DNA of 64,000 bases. Origin: a virus. The position numbers and the translations under genes were made by a program. The stretch covers positions 1 through 64,000 of the IMG/VR virus record IMGVR_UViG_3300037851_001030. One strand, written 5' to 3'. How positions within the stretch are numbered: position 1 is the stretch's first letter; every line of letters starts with the position of its first letter. The notes beneath the pieces were generated by a model. That model was not told where the DNA came from and searched no databases. It saw only the letters and a list, made by a program, of their open reading frames with translations. Below are positions 1,942-42,117 of the stretch, piece after piece.

Positions 1942-1943
1942 AC

Positions 1944-1972
1944 CCAAAACTCACCCCGACGGCTAGTTTTGG
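1944..1972. repeat. 8-bp perfect inverted repeat (CCAAAACT / AGTTTTGG, 13-nt spacer) filling the 33-bp gap between two divergent start codons
   Basis: Read directly: cat-ACCCAAAACT-caccccgacggct-AGTTTTGGT-catg. The symmetry extends to 10 of 12 positions including both ATGs. Confidence 0.7.
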
Positions 1973-1974
1973 TC

Positions 1975-3111
1975 ATGCCGACGTACACACGCGAAAGCAC
2001 GGTGGCTTTCGAACACCAGTTCGTGGACCTTCACGGCGATCCAATCCCACCGGTCGACGTTACGTATCCGCAGGTACAGATCGAGAACCCAGGCGGAGCA
2101 ATCGTGGCGTCCGGTATCGCGGTGGCCATGACGCCCGGGACCTGGCAGTGGAGCTGGACGATCCCAGCGGGCGCCACGCTCGGTGACGGCTGGCGCATCC
2201 GCTGGTCGCTCGTGGACCCAAGTCTGTCCACGCATGAGGCGGTAGAAGCGTTCGCGATCGCGGACCAGGTCCGGAGCCCTACGGGACTCGACCGCCTTGG
2301 AGCTTATCTCTGTGTACTTGGACAGAGCGAGCGGATCGTGTGGAAGGACGACTCCGACCCAGAGTACCTGGACCTCACGCTTCGGTCCCGAAGCGAGACG
2401 ATCGGCACCTGGAACAAGACCTTGCTAGTGCCGCCCGTGCCGTTGCTGTCCTACGTCTACGATCAGGGTCTCCACGTCTACTACGCCGATACGCCGGCCA
2501 TGACGACGTGGGGCGACTACCTGGCCCTCTGGAGGTCGCGGCCGAACGCGGCGAGCGCGTACGTGACCGAGACCCAGATGGTGCACGTTCCGCACGACTC
2601 GTTCTTCTTCTACGTGCCGTACCTACGCCAGCTCCTCGACAAGCTCGGCAAGGTCACGACGACGCCTCTCAGCTACCTCGACCTCGAGCTGTACCAGGCG
2701 TTCACACGCGGCCTCGAGTTCGTGAACGGCCAGGTGCCCTTCACGACCTGGACCTGGACCACGTTCCCGGAGAGTTTCGTGACCTGGTGGGTGTTCGCCG
2801 CCGGCATCTACGCGCTGGAAGCTCGTCAGCTCCTAGAGATCGAGCTTCAGCACAGCGCACAAGCCCTCAGTGTGACGCTCGAGTACGACCACCACAGCCC
2901 ACTATCCGAAGTGATACAGAGGTACACCACCCTGCTCCAGGAGTGGTTACCCAAAGCCAAGCTCGGAGCCTACCGCATGGCGGCTGGGCCTGGATCGGTG
3001 GGCGTACGACCGCTACGCCTGAGCTGGACGAGCCGAGTATTCAAGATCGGGAGTTCCAATAACCCGCTCGGAGATCTCGCCAACCTGATGTCCGCCTTGG
3101 GTTTACCGTAA
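1975..3111 (+). CDS. Hypothetical phage protein (378 aa), probably structural
   Basis: In-frame ATG at 1975 inside track ORF 1315..3111. Upstream of it the opposite strand is the real gene. From MPTYTRESTVAFEHQF the composition looks like a real protein. Confidence 0.75.
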   Translation: MPTYTRESTVAFEHQFVDLHGDPIPPVDVTYPQVQIENPGGAIVASGIAVAMTPGTWQWSWTIPAGATLGDGWRIRWSLVDPSLSTHEAVEAFAIADQVRSPTGLDRLGAYLCVLGQSERIVWKDDSDPEYLDLTLRSRSETIGTWNKTLLVPPVPLLSYVYDQGLHVYYADTPAMTTWGDYLALWRSRPNAASAYVTETQMVHVPHDSFFFYVPYLRQLLDKLGKVTTTPLSYLDLELYQAFTRGLEFVNGQVPFTTWTWTTFPESFVTWWVFAAGIYALEARQLLEIELQHSAQALSVTLEYDHHSPLSEVIQRYTTLLQEWLPKAKLGAYRMAAGPGSVGVRPLRLSWTSRVFKIGSSNNPLGDLANLMSALGLP

Positions 3112-3154
3112 CGATATCACATAGTTAGTTTCTAAGGTATCTATTATTGACTCC

Positions 3155-3437
3155 ATGGCCGCCTTGACCTACCCGCGGGTTCGCGGCCAACGCCGACTTC
3201 GTCGACTATTGCCACCAAAAGGTTATCCACGTCGACGGCGACTACTGGCACGGACTTGCTAACCCTGCGCGGCAGCGATACGATCGCGCCATCGACCGCT
3301 GGTGCTTCGATCACGGCTGGTCGTACGTGCGCCTGTGGGAGTCGCACATCTATTCGGACCCGGATCTGTGCTGGGCCCTGGTCTGTCGGATGCTTCGCAG
3401 CCCTACCTGGCTTGGCTTGCGATCGGATGGGTCTTGA
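3155..3437 (+). pseudogene. Start-less or frameshifted remnant of a Vsr/DUF559-like PD-(D/E)XK endonuclease
   Basis: The frame opening after TGA 3165..3167 reads ...ANADFVDYCHQKVIHVDGDYWHGLANPARQRYDRAIDRWCFDHGWSYVRLWESHIYSDPDL... to TGA 3435..3437. There is no ATG/GTG/TTG in that frame before codon 54. The only nearby ATG (3155) is in the adjacent frame. Confidence 0.45.
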
Positions 3438-3440
3438 AAT

Positions 3441-3818
3441 CTACAGCGGTTCGATCACGTTGACCGCGACTCGGTTCTCGGCGAATTGCTCTAGGTGAAT
3501 GTGGCACTCCTCGAGTTTCCGTGCAAAGCCCACGGCCACCAGCACCATCTCCACAGCCGCGGGTGACGGTGCTCGTCCTGGGTCCGGAGACGACATAGAC
3601 AGGTGCCGGTACCACCCCGTTGGGTGCTCCTCGACGCTAAGCGCAACCCGCCAGCCAAGGGGCAGATCCACGAACTGATCGAGGGGCACGGGGCTTCCCT
3701 TCCACGAGGGGTTGGAGCCTTGAGCGTACGCCTTTATCGTAGCGAGCGGGATCCTACGCTCGGGGCTTTCGGCTAGCGCCATCAGCTTGCGCAAGCTCGA
3801 CTCTATCTCCGGAGACAT
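3441..3818 (-). CDS. Hypothetical protein (125 aa)
   Basis: Internal ATG 3818 of track ORF 3441..4265 (MSPEIESSLRKLMALAE...). The upstream part of that ORF is Arg/Pro-rich off-frame read-through. Confidence 0.65.
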   Translation of the reverse strand: MSPEIESSLRKLMALAESPERRIPLATIKAYAQGSNPSWKGSPVPLDQFVDLPLGWRVALSVEEHPTGWYRHLSMSSPDPGRAPSPAAVEMVLVAVGFARKLEECHIHLEQFAENRVAVNVIEPL

Positions 3819-12587: not shown

Positions 12588-12857
12588 CTACTTCAAGGCC
12601 TCGACCAACTCGGCCGGGAGCTGACGATGGTACTTGGCCGCCCAGCGGGACACCGTCGCGACCTCGCGGTCCGTGAGCGGAAGCGACGAAGCCGCGAGCT
12701 GGTGGCCGTAGGGCGCGTCGAGCTTGTTGAAGCCCGCGCCGTCCAGCATCTGGGCTCCGTCGCACATACCGGCGAGCGTCTGCACCACGGTCTTCGCGAT
12801 CGCGCGCTGGGCGTCGGTCCAGGCGCGCTCGGGCCGCGCGGAGGTCAGGTTTGCCAT
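12588..12857 (-). CDS. Hypothetical protein (89 aa)
   Basis: Full track ORF with plausible composition. First gene downstream of the candidate promoter at 12885..12912. Confidence 0.65.
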   Translation of the reverse strand: MANLTSARPERAWTDAQRAIAKTVVQTLAGMCDGAQMLDGAGFNKLDAPYGHQLAASSLPLTDREVATVSRWAAKYHRQLPAELVEALK

Positions 12858-12884
12858 GCTCGGCTACGTTGTCGACCTACCACC

Positions 12885-12912
12885 ATCTTAGCATATGCTC
12901 AGATTGAGTCAA
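12885..12912 (-). promoter_or_regulatory. Candidate sigma70-type promoter with a palindrome in the spacer
   Basis: Minus strand reads TTGACT (12912..12907), a 16-nt spacer, then TAAGAT (12890..12885). The 10-bp palindrome AGCATATGCT (12890..12899) overlaps the spacer. This is the most A/T-rich intergenic patch of the left third. Confidence 0.4.
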
Positions 12913-12939
12913 TATCTTTTTTGATAGGAAACCAGAGCT

Positions 12940-13004
12940 TTTGGCGATCACTCTAAGCGTAGGGATTACGGGTAGTTGGAAGTGAAAAGCGGGGTTTGGC
13001 GATC
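12940..13004. repeat. Direct repeat TTTGGCGATC (12940..12949 and 12995..13004) upstream of the candidate promoter
   Basis: Read directly. Each copy is followed by a similar tail (ACTCTAAGCG / GCCCTACGTCG). Confidence 0.5.
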
Positions 13005-13007
13005 GCC

Positions 13008-14361: not shown

Positions 14362-14952
14362 TCACGCGTACGGCTTGAGCGCGTCGAGCGCGATCGCGGT
14401 CGGTTCGTTGATGATCGCGCCGCCCTCGACCGTGAACTGGAACGCCTCAAGCGCGGAAGCCACCACCTTGACCTCAGGTGCGCTACATGCGTACGCCAGG
14501 ATGTGGGACGCAACCTGATCGATCGGCGTCACGATCTCACCGTAGCGCCAGTATTCGAGTTCCAGGCGCGTGCCATAGGCAACCGCCTCGTAGACCGCAC
14601 GATTGGCCTTGGACGCGAGATACAGGACTGGGAACGATGGGTCGTTCAGGTACTGGAGCACGTGCACGTGCTCGTGAACCAGCACCACGATCTGAGCCCA
14701 GCGATCGTAGTACTCAGTCTCGACCCCGAGCGAGAACGGCGCATAGACGTCCTGGATCAGCGTGGTCGTGAACCGCTTCAAGAACGCTTCGTGGTCGAGC
14801 ACGCCCATGACCTGGAGCGTGTTGCCCACGGTCACCATGAGTGGGTGCTGGTCCTTGCGAATGAGCCGAGTGTTGTATCGCGCCCGCAACGCTTGCCAGA
14901 CGTCGGTTACGGCCTCGGCAGGTACTGGGTCTAGCTTCACTGGGGTAGGCAT
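14362..14952 (-). CDS. HExxH zinc-metallopeptidase-like protein (196 aa)
   Basis: Internal ATG 14952 (MPTPVKLDPVPAEAV...). Motif VVLVHEHVHVLQY. Confidence 0.6.
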   Translation of the reverse strand: MPTPVKLDPVPAEAVTDVWQALRARYNTRLIRKDQHPLMVTVGNTLQVMGVLDHEAFLKRFTTTLIQDVYAPFSLGVETEYYDRWAQIVVLVHEHVHVLQYLNDPSFPVLYLASKANRAVYEAVAYGTRLELEYWRYGEIVTPIDQVASHILAYACSAPEVKVVASALEAFQFTVEGGAIINEPTAIALDALKPYA

Positions 14953-15152
14953 GCGGCCCCCGCATCGGTCGTCTGGCAGCTCATGAGCTTCTCCGTGCGC
15001 GGCAAGCGCGCACAATCCATGAGCGGCTTCCACGTGCGGTCGGTCGAGCAGATCTCAACCACGCTCGCCGCGCAACGTCGGGTGGCCACCGTGGTGCAGG
15101 GTGGGCCGCAACCGACGAGCGCGAGGCCTAGCGCCACGTACAGGACGCGCAT
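14937..15152 (-). CDS. Small Cys-rich lipoprotein (71 aa)
   Basis: The last 71 codons of track ORF 14937..15668 read MRVLYVALGLALVGCGPPC..., a signal peptide with lipobox LVGC. The ATG sits 1 nt after the upstream stop. Confidence 0.5.
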   Translation of the reverse strand: MRVLYVALGLALVGCGPPCTTVATRRCAASVVEICSTDRTWKPLMDCARLPRTEKLMSCQTTDAGAACLPQ

Positions 15153-15153
15153 G

Positions 15154-15516
15154 TCACGCCAATCTGTGCTGGCCCTTGTGACCCGCGGGCAGCACGCACT
15201 GGGACCCGTTCTTGGCCCTGGCGGCGCAACGCCCCGCGACCGCATTCGGCGCGGCCGCGGTCTTGTCCGGCGCGATCGGACGCCGGAAGGCGACGGCAGC
15301 CGCCGGATAGAACGCGCGGCCATTCGGAGCGTCGAATACCAGCATCCCGGTGTAGGGATCGTGGCCGACGAGCGTGGCCTCGAACTCCGGCTCGTGCGCC
15401 GCGACGACATGAACCAGCACTTGCTGACCGTATGCGTCGCGACAGTACGGATACGAGATCGTGGCAGCGTTCGCCTTGGTCGCAGCCTTCGGCGCGACCT
15501 TCTTACCCTTCGGCAT
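15154..15516 (-). CDS. Hypothetical basic protein (120 aa)
   Basis: Full track ORF. Lys-rich N-terminus. C-terminal C...C...H...H pattern. Confidence 0.65.
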   Translation of the reverse strand: MPKGKKVAPKAATKANAATISYPYCRDAYGQQVLVHVVAAHEPEFEATLVGHDPYTGMLVFDAPNGRAFYPAAAVAFRRPIAPDKTAAAPNAVAGRCAARAKNGSQCVLPAGHKGQHRLA

Positions 15517-15826
15517 CGGAGTCTCCCATCGCTTGCGCGGTTAGCAGCCGAACAGCCTCTGGCTGTTTTCGACGTAAGTCGCCAGCTATCTGTCCCCAGT
15601 CCATGCTGCACTCGGCTGAGCACGTGAGCTTGGTGGAGCGGTTGGTCCAGAACGTTCCGCAGCAGCACGCGGGGTCTGCATGACCGAGGCGCTTCCTATA
15701 CAAGTGCATAATGCACGTTCTCTGGAAGCGGTAGACCTGCTCGGGCGCAACCGCGGCCAGCCGATGGCGCGCATAGCGCGCGATCGTGTCCTTGCGCGCG
15801 GTACCTACATAGTCCCAGCTCGTCAT
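15503..15826 (-). CDS. Hypothetical Cys-rich protein (107 aa)
   Basis: Full track ORF. ATGA overlap with the upstream 714-codon ORF. Confidence 0.6.
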   Translation of the reverse strand: MTSWDYVGTARKDTIARYARHRLAAVAPEQVYRFQRTCIMHLYRKRLGHADPACCCGTFWTNRSTKLTCSAECSMDWGQIAGDLRRKQPEAVRLLTAQAMGDSDAEG

Positions 15827-17967
15827 GGGCTAACCCTACCACGATCGTGATCGTCTTGCAATCGTCCGCGAGTGCTAGCTGGTAACAGGGCCGAAGGCCG
15901 ATTCAAAAGCTTGGGATCGACATCGGACGACTCAGGACTCGACTGCGCGACAGGATAGCTAACCCACTGAGCGGGGCCCATCGGGCCCCGGTGGGTTCGC
16001 TGTCCTGTCGCGGGGGCCTTCGGCCCCCTTCGAGTTTGGCCACGGACAACGGATCCACTCCTTGAATCCTCTAGTACAGTACGGATAGGGATCCCCTTAC
16101 TGGGATCCCTATCCGTATATAGATCAATCAAAGGAGGTATCTGTTCTATGGAGTTCTGCTCACCCTGTTCGGAGCGCTGAACAGCCTGAGACTGCTGGAG
16201 TCTGCGCTCGCGACGCTTCAGCAACCTCGCGTATTCTTCTTCTTCGCTGAAGTCGTTCCACTCGGCCTCGGGCTCCGGCTTCAGCTCGGGCTCGGGCGTG
16301 ACCTCGTCCCAGTTCTCGAGCGAGTCGAACAGGCCCTCTTCGGGAGCCCAGTTCTGGTACCCAAGGATCTCGGCCTCGCGGTCGAAGTCCGCCTGCTCGC
16401 GCTCGGCCTTCTGGTCGGCGCGCTCGCGCTCAGCCCGCTGGCGCTCACGCTCGGCGGTCGCCAGTGCCAGGCGCTCCTGCTCAGCCCGCTTGCGCCGGGC
16501 GGCCAGCCGCTGACAGTGCGTCCCGTAGGACGGCGTGCAGTCGACGAGGCCGTCGGGGCCCTCTCGCTTGAGCCCGACGAGCGCGGCGGTTGTGCGACCG
16601 CCGGTCCGTGATCGAACGCGATACGGGTGCTTCGTGCGGCCGGCGCGGACGCGGAACGCACGCGGAACCCGGATACCCTTGATGCCCTCCACCATGGTCT
16701 GCACGTCCTCACGGAGCTGTTCCCACTCGAGGTAGTTCCGGATCGAAATATCGTGGCCATCCCCTTGGGGCCGCGTCCAGCTACGAACGGCCGTGAACGC
16801 ACGGCAGCCTCGCGGGCGGTCGACGAGAAGGTCGAAGGGCCACATGTACTTCCGCCACAGGGCTTCGGGTACCGGACCGTAGTCAGGACCAGCGTACCCC
16901 TTCCGATAGGCCGCGCCGCAGGGAAGGTCGTAGGTCACGAGGTAGCCGCCGGGCACGCGCTGAGCGCGCGGCTGGCGCAGGCCCTTCCGTTCGCAGTTCA
17001 GCCGGATCTGGGCTAGCTGCCGGCCGCTTACGGGCCCGTTAACAATCTCGAGTGAGCGTCGGATGAGTCGGACCGGGATCCGGTTCTTGCGGATGGCTCG
17101 GTTCCAGGCACAGGCTGTAGACAGACTGATACCGAAGGCAGCCGCAGCCGTCTCGTTCGAGATATAGTAGCGCTGGCGCTTGCAGTCGGCTGGCCGACCA
17201 CCCCGCGTGGCGTCGGTTGCGCGGTCGAGCGCTCGGTAGCACTCTTGCGCGCTTGGTAGGTCGCCCTCGGGGTCGAACGCCTCCCGTACCCTGCGGTTGC
17301 GTTCGCCATCGCTTTGGGTGGCGCCTCCCCAGACCCCGCGCAGGCGCGAGTAGAGGGACTGAGCACAGAACGTGGCCCAGTGCCTGGCGTCGGCGCGGGG
17401 TCGGCGTGCCACGACCTCAGCAAGCGGTCGTCGCTCCGTGTAGTGGTGCGCCATGTAGAGCCAGCGGCGCACGTGGGATTCGATCCAGTTGTTTCGGTGC
17501 AGGTGGTCCTGGAGCGCTTCGAGGTAGGCATCGATCTCCGGGAACTTCAGCACCACGCGATCGCCCACGTACTCGACCCGTACGATTCCGGAGGCCGAAA
17601 GGCGGTCGAGAGCTGCGCGCGCGTACCGGTCGTTGGCTTTGCGCCCCATGCGATAGTGGCAGGTACTGGCCACCAGGTTGAGGACCTCGCGCCTGCGCGC
17701 GCTGTAGCTCTGGGCTACGTCGAGCTGGGTGATCTCGTGCGCGCACGCGAGCTGGAGTGAGATCGCGAGTACGGCTGACGGCATCCGACGGTGACCCTGG
17801 ACTCGGTCGTAGAGCGACGTGAGGAGCAGCCAGGAGTCGCGGATCTCGAGTCGGCTGCCGTAGACCTCGTCGAAGGTCGTCGCGATGTGGTCGCGCTCGA
17901 TCACTGTATCAGAATACGTAAGGTTTTCCGTCCACACGAACCAGCTCCACGAGCAGGAAGCCAACAT
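15823..17967 (-). CDS. Large DNA-binding protein (winged-helix/HTH plus Glu/Arg coiled coil); candidate replication initiator or regulator; both ends uncertain
   Basis: 714-codon open frame. HTH-like YYISNETAAAAFGISLSTACAWNRAIRKN. Coiled coil RKRAEQERLALATAERERQRAERERADQKAEREQ. An alternative GTG start at 17904 lies 5 nt after the upstream stop. The last ~105 codons lose GC3 bias and coincide with the hairpins. Confidence 0.65.
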   Translation of the reverse strand: MLASCSWSWFVWTENLTYSDTVIERDHIATTFDEVYGSRLEIRDSWLLLTSLYDRVQGHRRMPSAVLAISLQLACAHEITQLDVAQSYSARRREVLNLVASTCHYRMGRKANDRYARAALDRLSASGIVRVEYVGDRVVLKFPEIDAYLEALQDHLHRNNWIESHVRRWLYMAHHYTERRPLAEVVARRPRADARHWATFCAQSLYSRLRGVWGGATQSDGERNRRVREAFDPEGDLPSAQECYRALDRATDATRGGRPADCKRQRYYISNETAAAAFGISLSTACAWNRAIRKNRIPVRLIRRSLEIVNGPVSGRQLAQIRLNCERKGLRQPRAQRVPGGYLVTYDLPCGAAYRKGYAGPDYGPVPEALWRKYMWPFDLLVDRPRGCRAFTAVRSWTRPQGDGHDISIRNYLEWEQLREDVQTMVEGIKGIRVPRAFRVRAGRTKHPYRVRSRTGGRTTAALVGLKREGPDGLVDCTPSYGTHCQRLAARRKRAEQERLALATAERERQRAERERADQKAEREQADFDREAEILGYQNWAPEEGLFDSLENWDEVTPEPELKPEPEAEWNDFSEEEEYARLLKRRERRLQQSQAVQRSEQGEQNSIEQIPPLIDLYTDRDPSKGIPIRTVLEDSRSGSVVRGQTRRGPKAPATGQRTHRGPMGPAQWVSYPVAQSSPESSDVDPKLLNRPSALLPASTRGRLQDDHDRGRVSP
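15946..16028. other. Nested long hairpin (22-bp outer stem with one mismatch, plus a 7-bp GC inner stem) followed by a GGGGGCC-TTC-GGCCCCC hairpin
   Basis: CGCGACAGGATAGCTAACCCAC (15946..15967) pairs with GTGGGTTCGCTGTCCTGTCGCG (15991..16012). Inner stem GGGGCCC-ATC-GGGCCCC (15973..15989). Second hairpin at 16012..16028. Confidence 0.75.
16081..16116. other. Perfect 14-bp inverted repeat (ACGGATAGGGATCC / GGATCCCTATCCGT, 8-nt loop) next to an A/T-rich patch
   Basis: Read directly. Three GGATCC copies lie within 16050..16110. ATATAGATCAATCAAAGGAGG follows immediately. Confidence 0.75.
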
Positions 17968-18544
17968 CCGAGGCCTCGTCCGCGTGCACGTACATGATCC
18001 AGGGTGCGGACACGGGCTTGCTATTCCAGGGCTGCCAGACGACGAGGAGCTGGCCGCTGGGGTCGCGCCTCAGGTCTGGCACGCGGTCGCTCAAGACCAC
18101 CTGGTTCTCGAACAGGAGATCAGCTACGTCGGTTGTCGCGATCTCTAGCTGGTGGAAGCCCAGGCGCGAGAGCTGGTGCTTGGCCGCTTCGAGCGCACGA
18201 CCCGTGCGCGAGCTGACGAACGTGAGCGACATCGGTTGCGTGCTCTCGAGGTAGCGGAGCGCGTTCAGCACCACGGGGTTTGGAGCGAGCGCAGCGACCC
18301 GGAAGCTATCGTTGAACTGTGCGACCAGTTCCTCAGCCCGCCTGCGCTCGATACCAAGCACGGGCGCGAGCGCCCCGACGAAGTCTGGGGTCGTGAGCTG
18401 CTGGTGTCGAAGCGCTGTTTGCGGGTACAGGGGCCGGAGATAGGCAAGGAGACCACCCGCGTAATCCAAGAGCACACCATCTATCTCACAGTATACGTGC
18501 CTCAAGAGTCCTCTCAGCAGTGTCGGAGATAGGAGACGGCCCAC
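17909..18544 (-). CDS. HAD-superfamily hydrolase, 5'(3')-deoxyribonucleotidase-like; start uncertain
   Basis: N-terminal HVYCEIDGVLLDY matches the DxDGV HAD motif I. The GTG at 18544 overlaps the upstream gene by 31 nt. An internal TTG would give MRHVYCEIDG. Confidence 0.55.
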   Translation of the reverse strand: MGRLLSPTLLRGLLRHVYCEIDGVLLDYAGGLLAYLRPLYPQTALRHQQLTTPDFVGALAPVLGIERRRAEELVAQFNDSFRVAALAPNPVVLNALRYLESTQPMSLTFVSSRTGRALEAAKHQLSRLGFHQLEIATTDVADLLFENQVVLSDRVPDLRRDPSGQLLVVWQPWNSKPVSAPWIMYVHADEASDVGFLLVELVRVDGKPYVF

Positions 18545-18735
18545 GCCAGGTTCTGGACCGCGGTCAGCACCGATAGCTCCGGCGCGCGTTCTGACTTCTT
18601 GATCGCGACCGTGAGGTCGTCAAATAGCATACGGAGATCACCAAGGGGCATCTCGAAGAGCGGCCGGAGTACGGCCTCGATCGCCCGCACGTCGGAGTGC
18701 GCGTGAAGCGCTCGGGCAATGTCAGTGGCAGTCAC
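18514..18735 (-). CDS. Hypothetical protein (73 aa)
   Basis: Full track ORF with plausible helical composition. Confidence 0.6.
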   Translation of the reverse strand: MTATDIARALHAHSDVRAIEAVLRPLFEMPLGDLRMLFDDLTVAIKKSERAPELSVLTAVQNLAWAVSYLRHC

Positions 18736-18937
18736 AGCCCACCAGCTCGAAGGACCCTGGGATCAGATCGAACGCATGCCCGCAGCGTTCGCACGTGAAC
18801 GTCAGGACCAAAGCCCACTTATCAGCGTAGCCATGATCACGATTCGGCTTGAGCGTGGCGCCACAACCGGTCGTGAGGACGCGACACTCGGGGCACGTGG
18901 CGGAGACCGGCGAGGCACTGGGCTGGAACTTGAACAA
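18722..18937 (-). CDS. Zinc-ribbon protein (CPEC...CERC), 71 aa, TTG start
   Basis: Full track ORF with two CxxC pairs. First gene of the minus-strand block at a divergent junction. Confidence 0.6.
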   Translation of the reverse strand: MFKFQPSASPVSATCPECRVLTTGCGATLKPNRDHGYADKWALVLTFTCERCGHAFDLIPGSFELVGCDCH

Positions 18938-18992
18938 CGTTAGAACCCCCGCGTCATGGAAAGCTAAGCAGCGCTCAGGCTACCAGGCGCGC

Positions 18993-19022
18993 TTGACCGG
19001 CGTCAAGAATCTGTGCTAGAAC
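18993..19022 (+). promoter_or_regulatory. Candidate promoter for the plus-strand island, geometry compatible with a leaderless transcript
   Basis: TTGACC (18993..18998), an 18-nt spacer, then TAGAAC (19017..19022). The ATG at 19030 is 7 nt after the -10 element and has no Shine-Dalgarno. TTGACCGGCGTCAA is itself an inverted repeat. Confidence 0.3.
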
Positions 19023-19029
19023 AGAGTCC

Positions 19030-19338
19030 ATGGACATGCCTTCGTTCGAGGAGCTGGTACGACGTTTGGAAATGGTGGAGCGCAAGCTCTCGGTGCCGGT
19101 ACCGCGTACCACGTGCTTGGGTAGTGCCGAGGCCACGGTGGCCGCGCAGCTCGACATCCAGCACAGCGCCTCGGCTCAGGGCGCGTTCGTGACGACGGAG
19201 CTAGAAAAGGGCGTAGATGGCGAGTGGCACTACCGCGGCCGCCCCGCGCATCAGGTCGTGATCCGCGCGTTCCTTGACGGACTCAAGCCGGGGGTCGTGC
19301 TTCGCGTTTTGGCACCTACCAAGGGAGATAAACCATGA
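19030..19338 (+). CDS. Hypothetical protein (102 aa), translationally coupled to the caspase-like gene
   Basis: Full track ORF. ATGA overlap with the next gene. Confidence 0.65.
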   Translation: MDMPSFEELVRRLEMVERKLSVPVPRTTCLGSAEATVAAQLDIQHSASAQGAFVTTELEKGVDGEWHYRGRPAHQVVIRAFLDGLKPGVVLRVLAPTKGDKP

Positions 19339-20174
19339 TTCGCAAGGCCCTGCTCGTCGGGATCAACGCGTACGACGACTCCCCGCTTAGCGGGTGCGTG
19401 AACGATGCGATCGACCTCCGGGCCATGCTCATCAGTCGAGGCTGGGAGTCGAAGAACATCCGGATGCTGTGCGACCACCGGGCCACGGATCGGGCCATGC
19501 GAGAGCGCCTGCGCTGGCTGACGTACGACACCAAGAGCGACGCCCAGCTCGTGTTCGGGTTCTCCGGTCACGGGACTCAGCTCCGCGACCGATCGGGTGA
19601 CGAGGACTTGCTCGACCACAAGGACGAGGCTCTCTGCCCGATCGACTATGATGACATCTGGGATAATCCGTTCATCGACGACGTGCTGGCCGACGAATTC
19701 AAGCGCCTCGGCAGGAACCAGCGGCTGACGGTCGTGCTCGATTGCTGCCACTCGGGCACGGGCACGCGCGCCGTGCGCAATCCGGAGGAGATCAAGACGG
19801 AGCTGACCCCGATGCGCCGGGCGAAGTTCGTGCGCGCTCCGATCGACGTCGAGCTACGGGCCGAAGGGTGCACCGCAACCCGAAGGCTCGGTGTCAAGCG
19901 CCGCGGCCTGACGTTCGACACGGACCCCGCCATGCGCCACGTGCTGATCGCTGCCTGTCAGAGCAACCAGACGGCGGCCGACGCCCAGTTCGGTGACCGA
20001 CCCAACGGCGCGCTCACCCGGCACCTGCTGAACGCGTTCAAGACCCTAGGGCCGGCCCATACGTGGGTGGACATCATGCTCGAGACGGCTCGCACGCTCA
20101 AGGCCGACGGCTTCGAGCAGACGCCTGCGCTCGAAGGCATGGCGTCGCTCATCAATGGCTACCCAGACTTCTAG
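19335..20174 (+). CDS. Caspase-like (peptidase C14 / metacaspase-type) cysteine protease, 279 aa
   Basis: ALLVGINAYDDSPLSGCVNDA, the His site FGFSGHGTQ and the Cys site VVLDCCHSGTG occur in canonical order and spacing. GGGAGATAAACC lies upstream of the ATG. Confidence 0.85.
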   Translation: MIRKALLVGINAYDDSPLSGCVNDAIDLRAMLISRGWESKNIRMLCDHRATDRAMRERLRWLTYDTKSDAQLVFGFSGHGTQLRDRSGDEDLLDHKDEALCPIDYDDIWDNPFIDDVLADEFKRLGRNQRLTVVLDCCHSGTGTRAVRNPEEIKTELTPMRRAKFVRAPIDVELRAEGCTATRRLGVKRRGLTFDTDPAMRHVLIAACQSNQTAADAQFGDRPNGALTRHLLNAFKTLGPAHTWVDIMLETARTLKADGFEQTPALEGMASLINGYPDF

Positions 20175-20409: not shown

Positions 20410-20751
20410 ATGGTCGATCGTGTTCTTGAGCTTTTCGAGCGGTTTGTCGTGGCCTACGAGCGTCGCGTTGAGCTGCTTTCGGCCTCGGCTCAGTCCTCGG
20501 TCTCAGCCTCGTCAACCTACACGGCTCTTCGTATTCGAGGCGGCTACGAATCCAAGCACAAGATCCAGTTCATCAAGGACGTCCGAGAGCTAACGGGAAT
20601 CGGCCTCAAAGAGGCCAAGAACGTCGTTGAGGGAGCGCGTCCCCTCATCGTGAAGACGAAGATGGTAGAGAGTATCTCTGAGGCGGCTGCCCGCTCCGCA
20701 TTGGTTATTCTCGAGAGCCTCGAGAATAACCTACCGATCGTGGTGTGGTGA
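20410..20751 (+). CDS. Ribosomal protein L7/L12 C-terminal-domain-like protein (113 aa)
   Basis: KIQFIKDVRELTGIGLKEAKNVVEGA closely parallels the L12 CTD core ([26 protein letters not shown]). GGGAAGGA lies upstream of the ATG. Confidence 0.7.
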   Translation: MVDRVLELFERFVVAYERRVELLSASAQSSVSASSTYTALRIRGGYESKHKIQFIKDVRELTGIGLKEAKNVVEGARPLIVKTKMVESISEAAARSALVILESLENNLPIVVW

Positions 20752-26485: not shown

Positions 26486-27781
26486 CTACGCCGACTCGAA
26501 GTCGGGCGGCGCCCCGCCGTGCAGGGAATTCGAGACCGGGGCCGTAGTCGAACACGACCCGCTCAGCCTAGTCCACTCCCATTCGAAGACCGCGGGCGGG
26601 TCCCGTCTCTGGGAGCTTAGCTCAGTAGATACAGCCACCACCGAGTCGAACCACACGTCCGAATCAAGCGGCGTGAGCGAGCACCCAGTCCACAGCTCGG
26701 TGAAGGGCTCTCCGCTATCTAGGGCGCTGCCGCTATCGAGGGGCCCACTGTCGAAGGGCGTGCCCGCCCCTAGCCCTGGTGGTAGCACGACGGCGTCGGG
26801 TCGATACGACCAGAACCGGCGCGCGACCTCGACCGACGTTGAGGGTGACACGAACGCCATCCAGGTGTCCATGGTCCCTATGAGGCCGAGTAGATACTGT
26901 AGGTTGTGCTGCGGCCAGTGGCTGTGGAGCACGGTCTGCCAGCCAGGCTCGTCTCCCTCGTCTGTGGGGTCCCAGGTGCCCATCCCGACCCCGATATAGG
27001 AGGTCGCTTCGACCGCCGACCGGAGGCGTAGTTGCTGAGGCACGTTGACCGCGAGCTGCCAGAGGGCGCGCTCACGTGCGGTGGGTAGGTCTGGGAGCCA
27101 GACGTTGAACTCGTAACCGTGATAGCTGGCGGGCGCCGGCCACAGCGTGTGTATCGCCGGGTCTACAATCGACCCCGGTATCATGGGTACGATGATGGGC
27201 GACCCGAGGGAGAAGGCCGCCGCGATCGAGTCGATCCCGAGCGTGGTGGGCGCCCCGTGAAAGACCGCACGACCGAGAAGCTTGACGGCGAGCGCTCGCA
27301 GGGCCTGGGTGTCAGGCAGCGACTGATGGTACTTGAAACGGAACTCGGTAGGGCGACTCGACCAGCGCGACGTCAGGCTCCAGTACTGAACCAGGTAGTC
27401 GAGGTACGTGTGCCGGAAGTAGTCGAGCGCCGCGCCCTTGTGAACAAGGGCCTGGTAGGAGAGCGAGACCCCGATCGATGCCTCTTCCCCGACGTCGTCG
27501 ACCACGCGCACCCAGTTGACGTCGGGCCACGGGGCAAGCGGACCAAGCTCCAGACGCACCGCGATCGAGTCGAGACCTATCTCCCCGACGAGACCGCCGT
27601 TCAGGTACACGCGGACTCGGCGCCCCATCGTTCCGGTTATCACGAACGCGGTTCGTGCCTCGATGGGCCTCGGGTTTGGGCCCGAGGTTGTGTACGCCAG
27701 TCCCGGCGGGATCGCGGCCATGATCCGCTGGAAGACCTGGTCTTCGTAGGATCCTACGGGCGCGATCGCGAGCGCGGTCAC
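26486..27781 (-). CDS. Baseplate-module structural protein (431 aa)
   Basis: GTG start in a GTGA overlap with the J-like gene. Function is suggested only by its position downstream of that gene. Confidence 0.7.
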   Translation of the reverse strand: MTALAIAPVGSYEDQVFQRIMAAIPPGLAYTTSGPNPRPIEARTAFVITGTMGRRVRVYLNGGLVGEIGLDSIAVRLELGPLAPWPDVNWVRVVDDVGEEASIGVSLSYQALVHKGAALDYFRHTYLDYLVQYWSLTSRWSSRPTEFRFKYHQSLPDTQALRALAVKLLGRAVFHGAPTTLGIDSIAAAFSLGSPIIVPMIPGSIVDPAIHTLWPAPASYHGYEFNVWLPDLPTARERALWQLAVNVPQQLRLRSAVEATSYIGVGMGTWDPTDEGDEPGWQTVLHSHWPQHNLQYLLGLIGTMDTWMAFVSPSTSVEVARRFWSYRPDAVVLPPGLGAGTPFDSGPLDSGSALDSGEPFTELWTGCSLTPLDSDVWFDSVVAVSTELSSQRRDPPAVFEWEWTRLSGSCSTTAPVSNSLHGGAPPDFESA

Positions 27782-29169
27782 AGGGCCACCACCCTCAGGT
27801 TGACGACCGGGTACTCGTGCGGCGCGAAGATGATGGGCTGCACCAGCATCGTCGCGCGATCCGGACGGTTGAACTTGTTCAGGACCATGCTGACCGAGAG
27901 CCTTGCCGTGAGGTCGTCGGCAAACGCCTTCGGGTCAAGCTCAAGCACGAAGTGCTGACGCGAGGTCAGGAGCGTGGGGTCTCGGAACCACCGCGTGACG
28001 AGGCTCTCGACGTCGGTCACGCGTGCCCCCGCGCCGTAGCTCGTGACCACCAGCTCGACGTCAACCGGAACCTGCTTGCCTTCGCGTACGATGGCGTCGG
28101 TTTGGAAGAGCTGAGCGTTGCTCTCGTTCATGTAGTTGTGGAAGTCGAGCACGAGCGCGTTGTAGCTGTAGGCCACGTAGACCGTATGCCCCGGTCCTGG
28201 CGCGGTGTCGAGGTCGATGGCGTCCTGCGCGAAGACCGTGCCACGAGTCGCCGGAGCCGTATCCCGTATGATAGTGTAGGTCGCCGCCACGCCGTCGACG
28301 AGCACGGCCGTTACCTCGAGCAGCGGGGCCTCTGGCAGCACGATCGTGGTCTCGGTGCCCGAGGTCGTGTACGTGTAGTCGGTCACGCCCAGTCGAGACC
28401 CGATGACGTAGATGTCGATCATCGAGCGCACCATACCGCTCGGCAGCCGCTCGAAGACGCCGACGTCGGCCGGCGTCAGTACCGCAGTGTCCTCGACCGC
28501 GCCCTGGGTGAAGCGGATCCCGAGGCTGGCGAGGCCGCCGGGCGTGCCGAGTGAATTTCCGAGTAGGACGGAGCGCAGGTCGTCGACGAACTCCTGGAGC
28601 GACTGGTTGGTGGAGCCGCCACGGAACTCGGAACTCGTGACACCGGAGACCCCCGAGATAGGGGTCTGGAGCACGTTGACGCTGCCCTCGGCGCAGTCGT
28701 AGTCGGGCCCGATCTCGACGGCCTCGGCCGGAACCGTGATCTCGTAGCGCCGCCTGCTGGCGACGAAGTAGGCCGCCACGTTGGCTGCGAAGAAGGTCAC
28801 GGCCTGGAGCGTCTTGTAGAAGTAGCGGCCGTCCGAGGTCGACCCCAGGGTCCCTTCCTCGATCGGTGTGTCTGCCTTGATCTCGTATGCGTAGAACGTC
28901 AGGTAGCCCTGGGACGGAGTGCCCTGGCTCAGGCTCATGCCGTAGTCACGGCCGACGGATGCGATCTCCTCGGTGGACCAGCGGTCAGCCGTCTCGAACT
29001 GGTAGCGCTGCGCCAGCGCATCGTTGGCAGCCTCTTGCTTCGATATCTCGACGGCCCATGGGTAGTGCGCGGTCTCGTAGACGGGGCCCTTGCGGGTGTC
29101 CACGTTCGGATTGATAAGCTCGGTGGTCTCAGCCATCGAGCGCGTGATTTCGTCGACGTCGCGCGCCAC
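27778..29169 (-). CDS. Baseplate J (gp47/gpJ)-like protein, 463 aa
   Basis: GYLTFYAYEIKADTPIEEGTLGSTSDGRYFYKT and VNVLQTPISGVSGVTSSEFRGGSTNQSLQEFVDDLRSVLLG follow the baseplate-J family pattern. Confidence 0.6.
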   Translation of the reverse strand: MARDVDEITRSMAETTELINPNVDTRKGPVYETAHYPWAVEISKQEAANDALAQRYQFETADRWSTEEIASVGRDYGMSLSQGTPSQGYLTFYAYEIKADTPIEEGTLGSTSDGRYFYKTLQAVTFFAANVAAYFVASRRRYEITVPAEAVEIGPDYDCAEGSVNVLQTPISGVSGVTSSEFRGGSTNQSLQEFVDDLRSVLLGNSLGTPGGLASLGIRFTQGAVEDTAVLTPADVGVFERLPSGMVRSMIDIYVIGSRLGVTDYTYTTSGTETTIVLPEAPLLEVTAVLVDGVAATYTIIRDTAPATRGTVFAQDAIDLDTAPGPGHTVYVAYSYNALVLDFHNYMNESNAQLFQTDAIVREGKQVPVDVELVVTSYGAGARVTDVESLVTRWFRDPTLLTSRQHFVLELDPKAFADDLTARLSVSMVLNKFNRPDRATMLVQPIIFAPHEYPVVNLRVVAL

Positions 29170-30027: not shown

Positions 30028-30100
30028 TGGAGCCGGGAGGACTCGAACCCCCTACCTCTAGCTTGCACAGCTAGCGCTCTCCCAGTTGAGCTACGGCCCC
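30028..30100 (-). tRNA. tRNA-Ala (anticodon UGC), CCA not encoded, unusual G at position 33
   Basis: GGGGCCG-TA-GCTC-AACTGGGA-GAGC-G-CTAGC-TGTGCAA-GCTAG-AGGTA-GGGGG-TTCGAGT-CCTCC-CGGCTCC-A. G3:U70 alanine identity pair. Canonical T-loop. Confidence 0.85.
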
Positions 30101-30147: not shown

Positions 30148-30645
30148 TTACGTCCCGTCTACCGTGACCGAGGTGCGCTGAGACCCCGTCATGGTAGCGG
30201 TCACGCGGTCCTTGGTGTCCCCGACGTTCCGGAACGTGGCGACGGCCCCCGCGATCGAGGTCTTGCCCGCGAGAACCGCGAGCATGAGTCGGATCGCCTG
30301 ACGAAGAGTAACGCTAGACTCGATCCCGGCACTGACGTCCATCGGACCGGTCGCCTCCGTCGCCTCGCGTACGTGGGCCTGCACGAAGAAGTCGTCGCAG
30401 CCGGTCTTGACGACGCGAAGAACGAGGGGCCCGACCGTGTCGGTGTCGGTCGAGTTCAACTGCACGGTGTAGAGGCCACCCGCCAGCTCGGCCCAAGTGC
30501 CATCACTTGGAGTAGCCAGAGAGCCGCCATTCTTGGAGAGCGTCAACGTGGGACTAGTGACCCCGGTCTTTCCGGTAATGTGGTCGATGCGACTCACGAG
30601 TCGGACGTAGACCTTCTGGGTAGAGCCTTTGAGGATCGGGAACAT
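30148..30645 (-). CDS. Hypothetical structural protein (165 aa)
   Basis: Full track ORF. TAATG overlap with the upstream tailspike-like gene. Confidence 0.7.
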   Translation of the reverse strand: MFPILKGSTQKVYVRLVSRIDHITGKTGVTSPTLTLSKNGGSLATPSDGTWAELAGGLYTVQLNSTDTDTVGPLVLRVVKTGCDDFFVQAHVREATEATGPMDVSAGIESSVTLRQAIRLMLAVLAGKTSIAGAVATFRNVGDTKDRVTATMTGSQRTSVTVDGT

Positions 30646-33461
30646 TAGTTGAACCCCATGTTGAACTGCCCCCGCTGTACGATCGAGTCAAGCGCATACT
30701 GAGCCTGCTGGGACGTAGAGTCCGTGACCGTTGGGACGGTGAGATACGTGATCAAGGCACCCGCTGTTGCCGTCGTGACGTAGCAGCGGATTTTCATCCG
30801 GAAACCAGTCGCGGGATTGATCGGGCTGTTCACAGTACCGGCGACGCTTAGTGTACCCGTTCCGGTACCAGAGGCGATAACAATAGCGGTGGCTGTGTTA
30901 GAGAACGTGGAAGAGTTCGTGACCCTGACCCACCATGTGCGAGTCGTATTATTGTACGCGATGAGTGTGCCTGAGTCGGAAGGCGAGCCGCCCGAGTACT
31001 GCACGGTCTTTTCGATATCACTGGAGACGCAACTCACATAGCCACTGGATACGAAGCTCAGCTCGACGACGCCGACCTTGATGGGCAGCGCGTTGAATCG
31101 GAAGGTGAGGGAGCTAGCGGTACCTGTAGCGGCCTTGGACATCGTGCAGTTCGTGCTGCTATCAATCGATATGATGATCGTATCGGCTGGGATGTTCGTG
31201 CCGTACACGTAGTCCCCAACGGCTACGCCTGTGGTGCTGGTCATGGAGATCGTGGGCGACGTATTGGTGGTCGAGCCACCCGTGCGCTTGTAGTTCAGGT
31301 TCCGCCACGATCCTAGGAACCCACTACCAGTATCGATGTCGTAGAAGAAATCGATGTTGTTGGTGCTTGTGCCTGTGAGCGTGGCCTCGGCGGTCCCGAA
31401 CTGTGTGTGTCCGAGCACCCAGTAGGGTGTGAGGTACTGGACCTCGTCGGCTGAGTTGATCATTCTCAGGCTTCCAGCACCGTCAAAGCCAGAAGAGGTT
31501 CCTAGCTGCACCACGGTGTAGGACTGTTCGGATGGATCGCGATTGTAGGACTTCTCGTCGAATACGATCCCGAGCCTGCCAGCGGTCGTGCTTGTGAACA
31601 AGTCGAACCAGTGGACTCCGCACACCTGCGTCTGACCCGTGGTTGAGTTGGTACAGCGGCAGCCCTTGATGATGAAGTTGTAGACCGTCGGGGTCAGCGT
31701 GTCTCCCGTATCGAACCAACAATTGCGGAACTCGAGCCCGTCGCAGGAATTGTCGACGTTCTGCATGATGCCCGATCGAGTGTCCGACACGTAGATGCGG
31801 GCGAACGAGAGGCGCCACAAGCTAGCACCGGCCGCAGCCACCAGGAAGTAGCCCGTTGCGTTAGCACTACCGAGACTTAGCACCGAGCTTGGGGTCCCGA
31901 TGTTTCGCACACGGATGTTGTTGGACGCCACGATAATCTGGAAACAGCCCGTATACGGGTGCACGTTCGTCAGACCAAAGTGATCGATACCGTCGATCAC
32001 GATGTCGGAACAGAACGTGGTCATCGAGAAGTAGTACTGGCCGTTCGCGGTGCCCGTGGTGCCGTTGATCACGTCGCAGTAGGAGATCGTATCGAACCAG
32101 AGCTGTGAACTCGTGGTGATGAGAGCTACCTTCGCCCCGACGGCGGTTACGCCGCTCCACGAGCAATTCATGCAGCGGGTAATCGTCATCATACCCACGC
32201 TCGCGTTTGCTTTCGCGTCCATGACACGAAGGTTCGTGTTTGTGAACACGAGATCCACGCAGTCCGTCAGGGTAAGGACATAGTTACCAGAGGCCGATAC
32301 CTGCGCGCGACTGAACCAGCAGTCAGTGAATGTACCGCCGGAGAAGCACAGACTGATCGTGCATGTCATGGAGTTGGAGTATGCCTGGCCCACACCCACG
32401 TTATTGAACACGATAGGTTGGGTCACCTCGCTGATCGTGAAGATCTCAAAGATCGATGTGTTCTGGAGATAGACCGCGTACGGTTGGGATAGGTTCAGGT
32501 ACCAGGCACACATGCACTTATCAAAGTCGATAACCCCACCCGTTGTCGTGGCGAACTCGTATCGCGACGTTGCGGTGGAAGATGGAATGACATTGACCGC
32601 ACGATTGGCCGACGTCGTGTTCTGGAGCATGACGTTTGGAATACGAATCGCGCAGCCTGATGCCGGCACGTATCCGTAGTTGGTCCCGCTATCGTTACCG
32701 ATTCTCAGAAGCCCCTGAGAGGTAATGAACACGACCTTGCCGGCTACATCTGTGCGGTTCGCTATGCCAACGGTACCCGCCGCCGGATAGAATTCATAGG
32801 TACCCGAGCTGGGGCTGGTCTCGATCCACACGCCCGCGTAGTAGGTCCCGGTGACCGGAGCCGGAAGCTGGAATTGCTGGTTGGCGCTGCCATTGGTAGA
32901 CCCTACGCTGTACCAAGCGCCCCGGATGGTCACCTTCCCGAGTCTGGGCACCGTGATCGCCTGGGACTCTTCTGCCACGACCTCGATCCAGCCTACGACA
33001 TCGGCACCGGAACAGGTCGCCGTCATACTAGCTGTGCTGGCGGTCAACGTCTCGGCGGCGGCGAAGTTGCCGCTCTTGTTCTTGATCTTTATCCAGCCTG
33101 AAGCTGGCATCGTGGAGCCCGCAGTCGACGGCGCAACGTTCAGCGCTGACCACACGCCCAGGAAGTATCCCGTGGCTCCCCCGGACGACGTGATGGTCTC
33201 CCCGATAGCCGGGACGTTGTTAGCCCCGCTGCTGAAGGGGATCAACCGAACGTTCGTGCCGTCGATATAGAGTTCTCCTCCAGTAGCAGCCGCGATCGTC
33301 AGCGGACCGAAGGGACCTGTCGTCCCGGAGTGGTTGGCACAGTACCTAACGTCGGTGTCGATCGTCAGACGCGCACCCGCTGATATGTTTATCGTGTCGC
33401 CGCCACCCGGTGACGTGAGCGCGTCGAAGTTCGTGTTGGTCGTGACGTTGAACGTGGCCAT
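30645..33461 (-). CDS. Tailspike or depolymerase-like protein, probable right-handed beta-helix, 938 aa
   Basis: Long Asn/Thr/Gly/Ser/Cys-rich sequence with repetitive short beta-strand turns (…NVRLIPF…, …CMCAWYLNLSQ…, …NTNLRVMDAKAN…). Visibly lower GC than its neighbours. Confidence 0.65.
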   Translation of the reverse strand: MATFNVTTNTNFDALTSPGGGDTINISAGARLTIDTDVRYCANHSGTTGPFGPLTIAAATGGELYIDGTNVRLIPFSSGANNVPAIGETITSSGGATGYFLGVWSALNVAPSTAGSTMPASGWIKIKNKSGNFAAAETLTASTASMTATCSGADVVGWIEVVAEESQAITVPRLGKVTIRGAWYSVGSTNGSANQQFQLPAPVTGTYYAGVWIETSPSSGTYEFYPAAGTVGIANRTDVAGKVVFITSQGLLRIGNDSGTNYGYVPASGCAIRIPNVMLQNTTSANRAVNVIPSSTATSRYEFATTTGGVIDFDKCMCAWYLNLSQPYAVYLQNTSIFEIFTISEVTQPIVFNNVGVGQAYSNSMTCTISLCFSGGTFTDCWFSRAQVSASGNYVLTLTDCVDLVFTNTNLRVMDAKANASVGMMTITRCMNCSWSGVTAVGAKVALITTSSQLWFDTISYCDVINGTTGTANGQYYFSMTTFCSDIVIDGIDHFGLTNVHPYTGCFQIIVASNNIRVRNIGTPSSVLSLGSANATGYFLVAAAGASLWRLSFARIYVSDTRSGIMQNVDNSCDGLEFRNCWFDTGDTLTPTVYNFIIKGCRCTNSTTGQTQVCGVHWFDLFTSTTAGRLGIVFDEKSYNRDPSEQSYTVVQLGTSSGFDGAGSLRMINSADEVQYLTPYWVLGHTQFGTAEATLTGTSTNNIDFFYDIDTGSGFLGSWRNLNYKRTGGSTTNTSPTISMTSTTGVAVGDYVYGTNIPADTIIISIDSSTNCTMSKAATGTASSLTFRFNALPIKVGVVELSFVSSGYVSCVSSDIEKTVQYSGGSPSDSGTLIAYNNTTRTWWVRVTNSSTFSNTATAIVIASGTGTGTLSVAGTVNSPINPATGFRMKIRCYVTTATAGALITYLTVPTVTDSTSQQAQYALDSIVQRGQFNMGFN

Positions 33462-33464
33462 CCG

Positions 33465-37490: not shown

Positions 37491-37491
37491 A

Positions 37492-42117
<4,626 letters not shown>

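Follow-up and report, generated by a model that had tools for sequence, protein, structure and literature searches.

The polycistronic mRNAs of phages carry intercistronic hairpins such as the RNase III sites of T7 and the sib retroregulator of lambda, and 'I-shaped' terminators without a U tract are known from bacteria of high GC content. Replication origins occur embedded in or next to initiator genes, as exemplified by lambda ori in gene O, SPP1 gene 38 and P22 gene 18, and the palindromic elements of Rickettsia are dispersed repeats that are inserted in frame in genes. In this work, we describe an element of ~330 nucleotides (nt) that is located at ~15,830-16,150 in a 64,000-nt stretch of viral DNA (positions 1 to 64,000 of IMG/VR record IMGVR_UViG_3300037851_001030; hereafter the window). 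The window has a GC content of 63.6%, stems from a contig of 210 kb and is phage-like in content, with a Baseplate_J protein (27778-29169), a connector-like protein (1315-3111) and one tRNA-Ala. The element occupies the 3' end of a minus-strand open reading frame (ORF) of 714 codons and is, as far as can be judged from its sequence and those of its relatives, a conserved, densely folded single-stranded element and not a functional protein domain. We tentatively propose that it acts in cis, as a folded RNA module of the sense operon transcript situated where the ORF meets the next gene.

Like intercistronic hairpins and I-shaped terminators, the element presents stable stems of at least 20 bp between cistrons of the same strand, is rich in GC, is devoid of a U tract and is conserved in position without being conserved in sequence. 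Unlike intercistronic hairpins, it comprises five to seven helices plus a three-way junction over ~330 nt instead of a single hairpin, and the upstream ORF has no stop codon ahead of the helices.

The initial annotation had pointed out that over this stretch the ORF loses its bias for GC at third codon positions (GC3), stays open and ends in an ATGA overlap with the following gene, and codon analysis fully bears this out. GC3 in the ORF frame is ~0.9 down to ~16,240, fades over 16,150-16,200 and amounts to 0.4-0.5 below, and rare codons (ATA, CTA, TTA, AGG, AGT, CGA) appear where the bias is lost. The ORF frame is free of stop codons over 375 nt, compared to four to nine stops in each of the other five frames, and only 0.6% of dinucleotide-preserving shuffles stay open (P about 0.006). 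The sequence is reproduced over 8,145 bases with 100% identity in an independent Logan assembly (L004), and therefore neither the sequence nor the open frame is an assembly artefact; an assembly or frameshift error is thereby ruled out.

Two short contigs, L002 and L003, were reached through a neighbouring gene for a protein of 120 amino acids (aa). Identity is 99.7% between the two contigs and 83-89% with the window, of which L003 spans positions 16,212-15,826, with an identity of ~89% at the element. The frame is open in L003 too, where a 1-nt insertion leads to TAG, followed by 5 nt and ATG, an observation that taken alone is not significant (37 substitutions, P = 0.29). The manner in which the tail of the ORF evolves is more telling. 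Its identity with L003 is flat over the three codon positions, unlike that of the neighbouring genes (Table 1), and its rates of non-synonymous (dN, 0.111) and synonymous substitution (dS, 0.176) result in a dN/dS of 0.63, compared with a dS of 0.32-0.73 and a dN of 0.02-0.06 for neighbouring genes. 'Synonymous' sites of the tail are thus 2-4 times more conserved than those next to it. Flat codon positions, high dN/dS and low dS together indicate that selection is on nucleotides and not on the peptide, which appears to be nearly unconstrained. The conservation is dense and includes unpaired linkers.

The pairing itself is conserved as well. RNAalifold yielded six pairs that are changed on both sides in L003 and are still paired (Table 1). 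Since this structure had been picked with knowledge of the covariation, unbiased tests were added, for which local folding with a span of up to 105 nt was used because the intersection of the global minimum free energy (MFE) structures proved unstable (40 of 109 pairs shared); the null model consisted of the same 37 substitutions placed at random. Local MFE folds computed independently for the window and L003 have 76 of 111 pairs in common (41 +/- 15 in simulations, P = 0.009) and contain four compensatory pairs where 0.34 are expected (P = 0.0005), and the folding energy is retained in the relative (P = 0.005). Compared with random placement, energy retention has a P of 0.02 when starting from the window and of < 0.001 when starting from L003, for either strand. 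The pairing is, by this measure, under selection. Loss of the stems alongside a conserved protein tail, which the initial annotation had named as evidence to the contrary, was not seen; the opposite was found, with stems kept by compensatory double substitutions and a peptide tail that is not conserved, and the reading as a structured element stands.

For the 361-nt stretch 15,830-16,190, the predicted folding energy is -168 kcal/mol (z -7.4) for the minus and -176.8 kcal/mol (z -8.6) for the plus strand, values not attained by any of 100 shuffles. In a sliding scan of the whole window, four overlapping 150-nt windows at this site are the strongest outliers on both strands.

Along the minus strand, the anatomy would be that of an 83-nt hairpin followed by a small hairpin, a three-way junction and a second, enclosed multi-tier hairpin, with the element ending ~10-30 nt before the start of the next gene (Table 1). 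Four components had been described at the outset, and all are present, some with corrected details. The arms of the nested hairpin (15946-15967 / 15991-16012) indeed measure 22 nt each and are 91% complementary; they contain two mismatches instead of one, one of them a G.T wobble on the plus strand, and the inner stem comprises 8 bp (15972-15979 / 15983-15990, 3-nt loop) instead of 7. The inverted repeat is perfect as reported and extends over 16 rather than 14 bp (16080-16095 / 16102-16117) around a 6-nt spacer, within the imperfect 83-nt hairpin. The hairpin GGGGGCC-TTC-GGCCCCC is found exactly where it had been placed (16012-16028). GGATCC is present in three local copies (16051, 16089 and 16103; 0.13 expected, P = 3e-4), one of which changes position in L003; GATC is ~3-fold enriched (P = 0.011). 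The fourth component, the A/T-rich patch, has a GC content of 0.50; in L003, TATATA is replaced by CTTCTA and the A+T count drops from 14/21 to 11/21. Further hairpins lie at 16159-16190, 16042-16058, 15877-15911 (around GGCC-TTC-GGCC) and 15841-15863.

Within the junction, H4 is the all-GC hairpin, and H5 is the nested long hairpin of 65 nt with its 8-bp GC hairpin as a cap. Only three all-GC hairpins of 7 bp with a 3-nt loop occur in the 64 kb, and two of the three reside in the element. In L003, the lower stem of the long hairpin uses a different pairing (GAUCCU/AGGAUC). The loop of the inner GC hairpin (15980-15982) reads GAU (GAT in DNA) in the window and AUC (ATC) in L002 and L003, a loop inversion as might be expected from template switching at a DNA palindrome. 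A 23-nt block on the minus strand, CCATAGAACAGATACCTCCTTTG (16126-16148), is invariant in L003 despite its rare codons; it includes ACCTCCTTT, which has exactly the sequence of the anti-Shine-Dalgarno 3' end of 16S rRNA and pairs with AAGGAG 70 nt downstream. On the opposite strand, the A/T-rich patch and AAGGAGGT (16131-16138) are followed after 9 nt by an ATG (16148) that opens the 10-codon frame ending at 16180, just as initially noted. Its length is not conserved, with 10 codons in the window and six (MGFCSP) in L003, and it is probably not a gene; the block from the Shine-Dalgarno sequence to the ATG is 100% conserved over 23 nt.

Table 1. Features of the structured element and its surroundings, comparison with L003 and predicted fold energies. 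Positions refer to the window; identities with L003 are given for codon positions 1, 2 and 3.
Feature	Position	Strand	Details
714-codon ORF	15823-17967	-	gene caller start at 17904, corresponding to 693 aa
107-aa gene	15503-15826	-	its ATG overlaps the TGA of the 714-codon ORF (ATGA); identity with L003 0.92, 0.94, 0.82
223-aa gene	14362-15033	-	identity with L003 0.83, 0.92, 0.68
404-aa gene			identity with L003 0.97, 0.98, 0.65
Tail / conserved structured element	15826-16150	-	open frame not evolving as coding sequence; identity with L003 0.87, 0.90, 0.89
Mini-ORF MEFCSPCSER	16148-16180	+	behind AAGGAGGT
Long hairpin	16056-16138	-	tip is the perfect 16-bp repeat with 6-nt loop; base ACCUCCUU paired with AAGGAGU; includes the A/T patch
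Small hairpin H3	16038-16061	-	6-bp stem at 16042-16058; G.U pairs in sense orientation
Three-way junction	15937-16035	-	P1 (16030-16035 / 15937-15942), H4 (16012-16028), H5 (15947-16011)
H6 domain	15863-15929	-	CGUCCG/CGGACG closing stem around three-tier hairpin 15877-15911, tip GGCC-UUC-GGCC
TTGCAA-N17-TAGGGT	15833-15861	-	ends 6 nt ahead of the next gene's ATG; candidate promoter or H7
Compensatory pair	16113/16084	-	G-C to U-A; 16-bp repeat stays perfect in L003
Compensatory pair	16000/15958	-	G-C to A-U; nested hairpin H5
Compensatory pairs	16055/16045, 16054/16046	-	adjacent, in H3; plus one G.U to G-C change
Compensatory pair	15911/15877	-	A-U to G-C; H6
Compensatory pair	15905/15883	-	U-A to C-G; H6
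Fold energy, L001 hairpin A			sense -19.8, antisense -9.2 kcal/mol; 5 G.U pairs
Fold energy, L001 downstream stretch			sense -21.0, antisense -9.5 kcal/mol
Fold energy, H3 in L003			sense -9.7, antisense -2.3 kcal/mol
Fold energy, three-way junction, window			sense -72.8, antisense -78.3 kcal/mol
Fold energy, three-way junction, L003			sense -58.4, antisense -69.8 kcal/mol
Fold energy, three-way junction, L001			sense -70.9, antisense -77.4 kcal/mol

A more distant relative is the 4.1-kb contig L001, which carries the gene for P0002 (562 aa), the single detectable homolog of the ORF protein. This gene stops ~50 residues past the conserved core, P0002 lacks the tail peptide altogether, and a gap of 538 nt separates it from a homolog of the window's 120-aa gene. 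Sequence similarity between this gap and the element is absent. The gap nonetheless holds an A/T-richer patch (GC 0.43-0.44) with a hairpin beginning at the stop codon, and a three-way junction (3034-3147) in which a closing stem of 8 bp joins an all-GC stem (7 bp, 3-nt loop) to a long hairpin that is itself capped by a GC-rich hairpin with a 3-nt loop. The window junction consists of three parts like these in identical order, and the only all-GC 7-bp hairpin with a 3-nt loop in L001 sits in this syntenic gap. This likeness in position and architecture without similarity in sequence is suggestive, not proven. A separate feature of L001 are three direct repeats, GA(C/T)ACCGT(A/T)(C/T)GC, at 3411-3470 upstream of the 120-aa gene homolog; two of the three are preceded by TTGACA-like hexamers, and they could be iterons or operators. 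An equivalent was not seen in the window.

Gene orientation shows that the minus strand is transcribed, and the sense strand is favoured as the folded one, albeit with low certainty. The preference of individual elements is mixed: L001 hairpin A, the stretch downstream of it in L001 and H3 in L003 all fold better in the sense orientation, unlike the three-way junction (Table 1). We infer that RNA is the acting molecule, that it is the sense strand that acts, and that the mechanism is one of boundary formation and coupling. As part of the sense polycistronic transcript, the element would serve as an intercistronic module by which a transcript boundary is marked and protected. It may do so by blocking 3' exonucleases and being a substrate for double-strand-specific processing, or alternatively by acting as a terminator or attenuator that has no U tract. 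The downstream genes would then regain expression through ribosomes crossing the open tail and re-initiating at the ATGA junction or, alternatively, by the promoter-like sequence TTGCAA-N17-TAGGGT. Both hexamers of the latter are identical in L003, where four substitutions fall into the spacer or loop; the motif is unique in the window at up to two mismatches (1.3 matches expected by chance), and it fails the sigma-70 consensus scan. It could be a promoter, but the pattern would fit a conserved hairpin, H7, with a 6-bp stem and an 11-nt loop as well. Ribosome read-through to the ATGA junction would be the most economical account of the open frame.

Several findings weigh against a sense-strand module of this kind. 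Since a terminator inside an ORF without a stop codon would give rise to non-stop mRNAs, the open frame (P about 0.006) speaks against simple termination; it would also allow ribosomes to melt the fold. The terminator scan found no U-tract terminator in 14,500-19,500 (the GC hairpins on the sense strand are followed by GCGACAGG), and the consensus scan found no sigma-70 promoter. In each of the three sequences, antisense folding of the nested hairpin and of the three-way junction is favoured by 5-11 kcal/mol, and three single transitions in L003 give G.U pairs in the antisense but A.C in the sense orientation. The unconstrained global MFE structure of the window contains two compensatory pairs where 1.2 are expected, which is not significant. 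The comparative depth amounts to two effective sequences plus one distant analogue, and although L001 3034-3146 is the only full-length match in that contig to a covariance model of the window junction, this match is not significant (10 bits, E = 6); as the model was built from near-identical sequences, it does not establish homology with L001.

Because the compensations fall in imperfect, multi-tier stems with internal loops and G.U pairs (H3, H6), and because a branched junction recurs, a folded single strand would fit the data better than a duplex binding site. If the 16 + 6 + 16 repeat were such a site, it would serve as an operator for a dimeric regulator or as a lox- or dif-like site for a recombinase, and everything else would be incidental. 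Inverted arms around an asymmetric 6-bp spacer fit this idea, and 16080-16117 does have the geometry of a tyrosine-recombinase core site; GGATCC is enriched, and the symmetric double change that keeps the half-sites identical is also what a dimer site predicts. The repeat nevertheless accounts for only 38 of ~330 conserved nucleotides, an integrase or recombinase domain is found neither in the ORF nor in the scanned neighbours, the half-site has no second copy in the window, and L001 has no comparable perfect repeat. Such a site is the least probable of the readings considered here. It is very unlikely, too, that the stretch is just a translated, disordered C-terminal extension, acquired by loss of a stop codon or by a selfish palindromic insertion, with hairpins devoid of cellular function. 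The frame is open in both the window and L003, the tail is rich in R, P, G and S and predicted to be disordered, and it is absent from the distant homolog; like the Rickettsia palindromic elements, a hairpin-forming sequence would be translated in frame with its host protein. Unlike those elements, however, it is single-copy in the 64 kb and its counterpart in L001 is non-coding, and neither the unusual conservation of 'synonymous' sites nor the compensatory changes that keep the pairing would be expected of a mere extension.

An origin embedded in an initiator gene had been one of the initial models. A replication origin, or another site acting as unwound DNA, at the end of its own initiator gene is an unlikely explanation that nevertheless has several observations on its side. 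In this model the hairpins would be extruded or would form on single strands, with a winged-helix/helix-turn-helix (HTH) protein binding close by. As in lambda ori inside gene O, the frame is open across a stretch constrained at the nucleotide level, which adjoins a putative DNA-binding protein (with weak winged-helix and HTH features) and has an A/T-richer patch beside inverted repeats; gene and element are also adjacent in the relative whose protein is 33% identical. Cumulative GC skew shows a broad, flat minimum at 12.6-16.5 kb and then rises to ~55.6 kb, a switch left unexplained by gene orientation as genes lie mostly on the minus strand on both sides. The stems lack a consistent strand preference, the loop inversion from GAT to ATC would be expected of template switching at a DNA hairpin, and GATC is enriched. 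Unlike lambda ori, however, the element contains no iterons, every family of direct repeats in it having two copies only, the inverted-repeat half-site is unique in the window, the A/T patch is eroding in L003, and a further protein domain does not follow the element as it does in lambda O. An initiator is not recognised in the ORF protein, which yielded no more than a low-confidence winged helix and sub-threshold HTH matches, and no helicase, primase or polymerase was recognised among the scanned neighbours. Extrusion from duplex DNA is improbable for imperfect multi-tier stems that contain G.U pairs, and the broad skew minimum has its lowest point at 12,611. Less likely still is an independent small non-coding RNA gene, transcribed antisense (plus strand) or cut from the sense mRNA. 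In its antisense version, H6' and the nested hairpin would be followed by GGGGGCC-UUC-GGCCCCC and then UUCGAGUUU as a terminator. In fact, TTCGAGTTTGG follows the all-GC hairpin on the plus strand and TTTCTGAC its antisense equivalent in L001, the antisense fold of the three-way junction is the more stable one in each of the three sequences, and the conservation is dense even in unpaired linkers. These T-tails fail the terminator scan, however, the flanking hairpins favour the sense strand, an Rfam family is not matched, and there is no conserved plus-strand promoter, the candidate -10 near 15,870 being changed in L003.

Returning to the folded module in the sense transcript, one further elaboration deserves mention, namely an ornate phage RNA of a new class, translated as well as folded, that would work as a translation-gated switch. 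The frame would be kept open for a purpose, as ribosomes arriving from the upstream gene would melt the three-way junction and be passed on to the next gene at ATGA; in the absence of translation, refolding would alter what becomes of the transcript. The winged-helix/HTH protein encoded upstream might recognise the RNA as its cognate partner. We regard this as distinctly improbable. The element resembles GOLLD and ROOL, the 'ornate' phage-associated RNAs of Rfam, in being phage-borne, multi-helical, conserved by covariation and of unknown function; it differs from these in its smaller size (~330 nt), its position within an ORF and its occurrence in only three known lineages, and such families were not matched at gathering or relaxed thresholds.

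The Rfam covariance scan proposed in the initial annotation returned no match for the element. At the gathering threshold of Rfam 15 only the tRNA-Ala at 30,028-30,100 passes in the window, and the best local match in a relaxed search reaches 19.6 bits compared to a threshold of 60 bits. A number of further candidates were considered and rejected. A group I intron is contradicted by the lack of an Intron_gpI match even at E <= 10; moreover, the distant homolog stops ahead of the element, and L001 has no counterpart of the downstream 107-aa gene. For a retron or an omega RNA (in Rfam, the IscB-associated RNA corresponds to the HEARO family), the adjacent proteins lack RVT, OrfB or RuvC-type domains and Rfam gave no match here. 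The repeat centre is not palindromic, unlike that of a protelomerase target, and a dispersed palindromic or miniature mobile element, similar to those of Rickettsia or to MITEs, is not in keeping with the finding that neither the element nor any part of it has a second copy within the 64-kb window (of a source contig of 210 kb). A packaging (pac) site, also suggested initially, is unlikely, as the head-tail connector-like protein is the sole packaging-related gene recognised and lies ~13 kb from the element. A sigma-70 promoter at TATATA was dismissed because it has no -35 box and TATATA is lost in L003, and GGATCCACT as a DnaA box because it has three mismatches to the consensus.

The ORF protein is an orphan with a conserved core at aa 34-500 (window 16468-17868). 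A full HMMER scan of 1.84 billion representative proteins detected P0002 only, with an identity of 36% in that search and of 33% by BLASTP over query aa 34-499, and a word-indexed protein search returned nothing except the window's own protein. Scans of viral, genome and metagenome contigs with protein, two-sequence profile and exact DNA motifs were all empty, DNA and protein searches of GenBank phages and PLSDB plasmids gave no match for the ORF, and Pfam, PHROG, NCBIfam and PDB provided no sequence matches. There is a weak winged-helix-like domain at aa ~87-141 and an HTH at aa ~268-295, with matches to HTH_Tnp_4 and HTH_23 below threshold. The AF2 model (pLDDT 40) is too poor for fold assignment; Foldseek retrieved weak winged-helix matches only (E >= 0.08), and residues 599-714 are predicted to be disordered.

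From 18,937 down to 4,228 all genes are encoded on the minus strand, and between 18,937 and 15,154 neighbours overlap by 4 to 59 bases; several gaps of 120-330 nt interrupt this block. One A/T-richer gap (12858-13007, minus strand, GC 0.49) harbours a good sigma-70-type promoter, TTGACT-N16-TAAGAT, suggesting a host with canonical -35/-10 promoters. The 107-aa gene shares 90% aa identity with its L003 counterpart (dN/dS 0.19), and a third variant, P0008, resides on a 786-bp ENA contig with 379 nt upstream. Among deposited phages (50,697 genomes), neither the DNA around the element nor the ORF, the 223-aa neighbour, the portal-like and the baseplate proteins have relatives. A strong family match was obtained for one neighbour only, the 223-aa protein (phrog_13834, E = 4e-39, function unknown), which has no tblastn match in deposited phages or IMG/VR. 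A divergent plus-strand gene block adjoins the operon and opens with a 279-aa protein (19335-20174) that contains a strong caspase domain (Peptidase_C14, E = 8e-27). Also on the plus strand, a 113-aa protein (20410-20751) has a precomputed Pfam Ribosomal_L12 (L7/L12) match on the identical Logan contig and weak PHROG matches, and may be a phage-encoded ribosomal protein. Very large minus-strand ORFs at 30645-41829 (938, 1341 and 1445 aa) presumably encode tail or fibre proteins; that of 1445 aa lies in a stretch of 70-76% GC with many internal short repeats and strong local folding.

Structured non-coding elements are almost unmapped in uncultivated large phages, and in the present case there is real evidence for selection on the fold. 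Such an element is easily annotated away because a gene caller reads through it as protein, and a nucleic-acid element can thus be concealed in what looks like the 'C-terminal tail' of an orphan phage ORF. Together with the adjacent DNA-binding-like protein, these ~330 nt offer a small target for questions about transcript boundaries or the start of replication in such phages.

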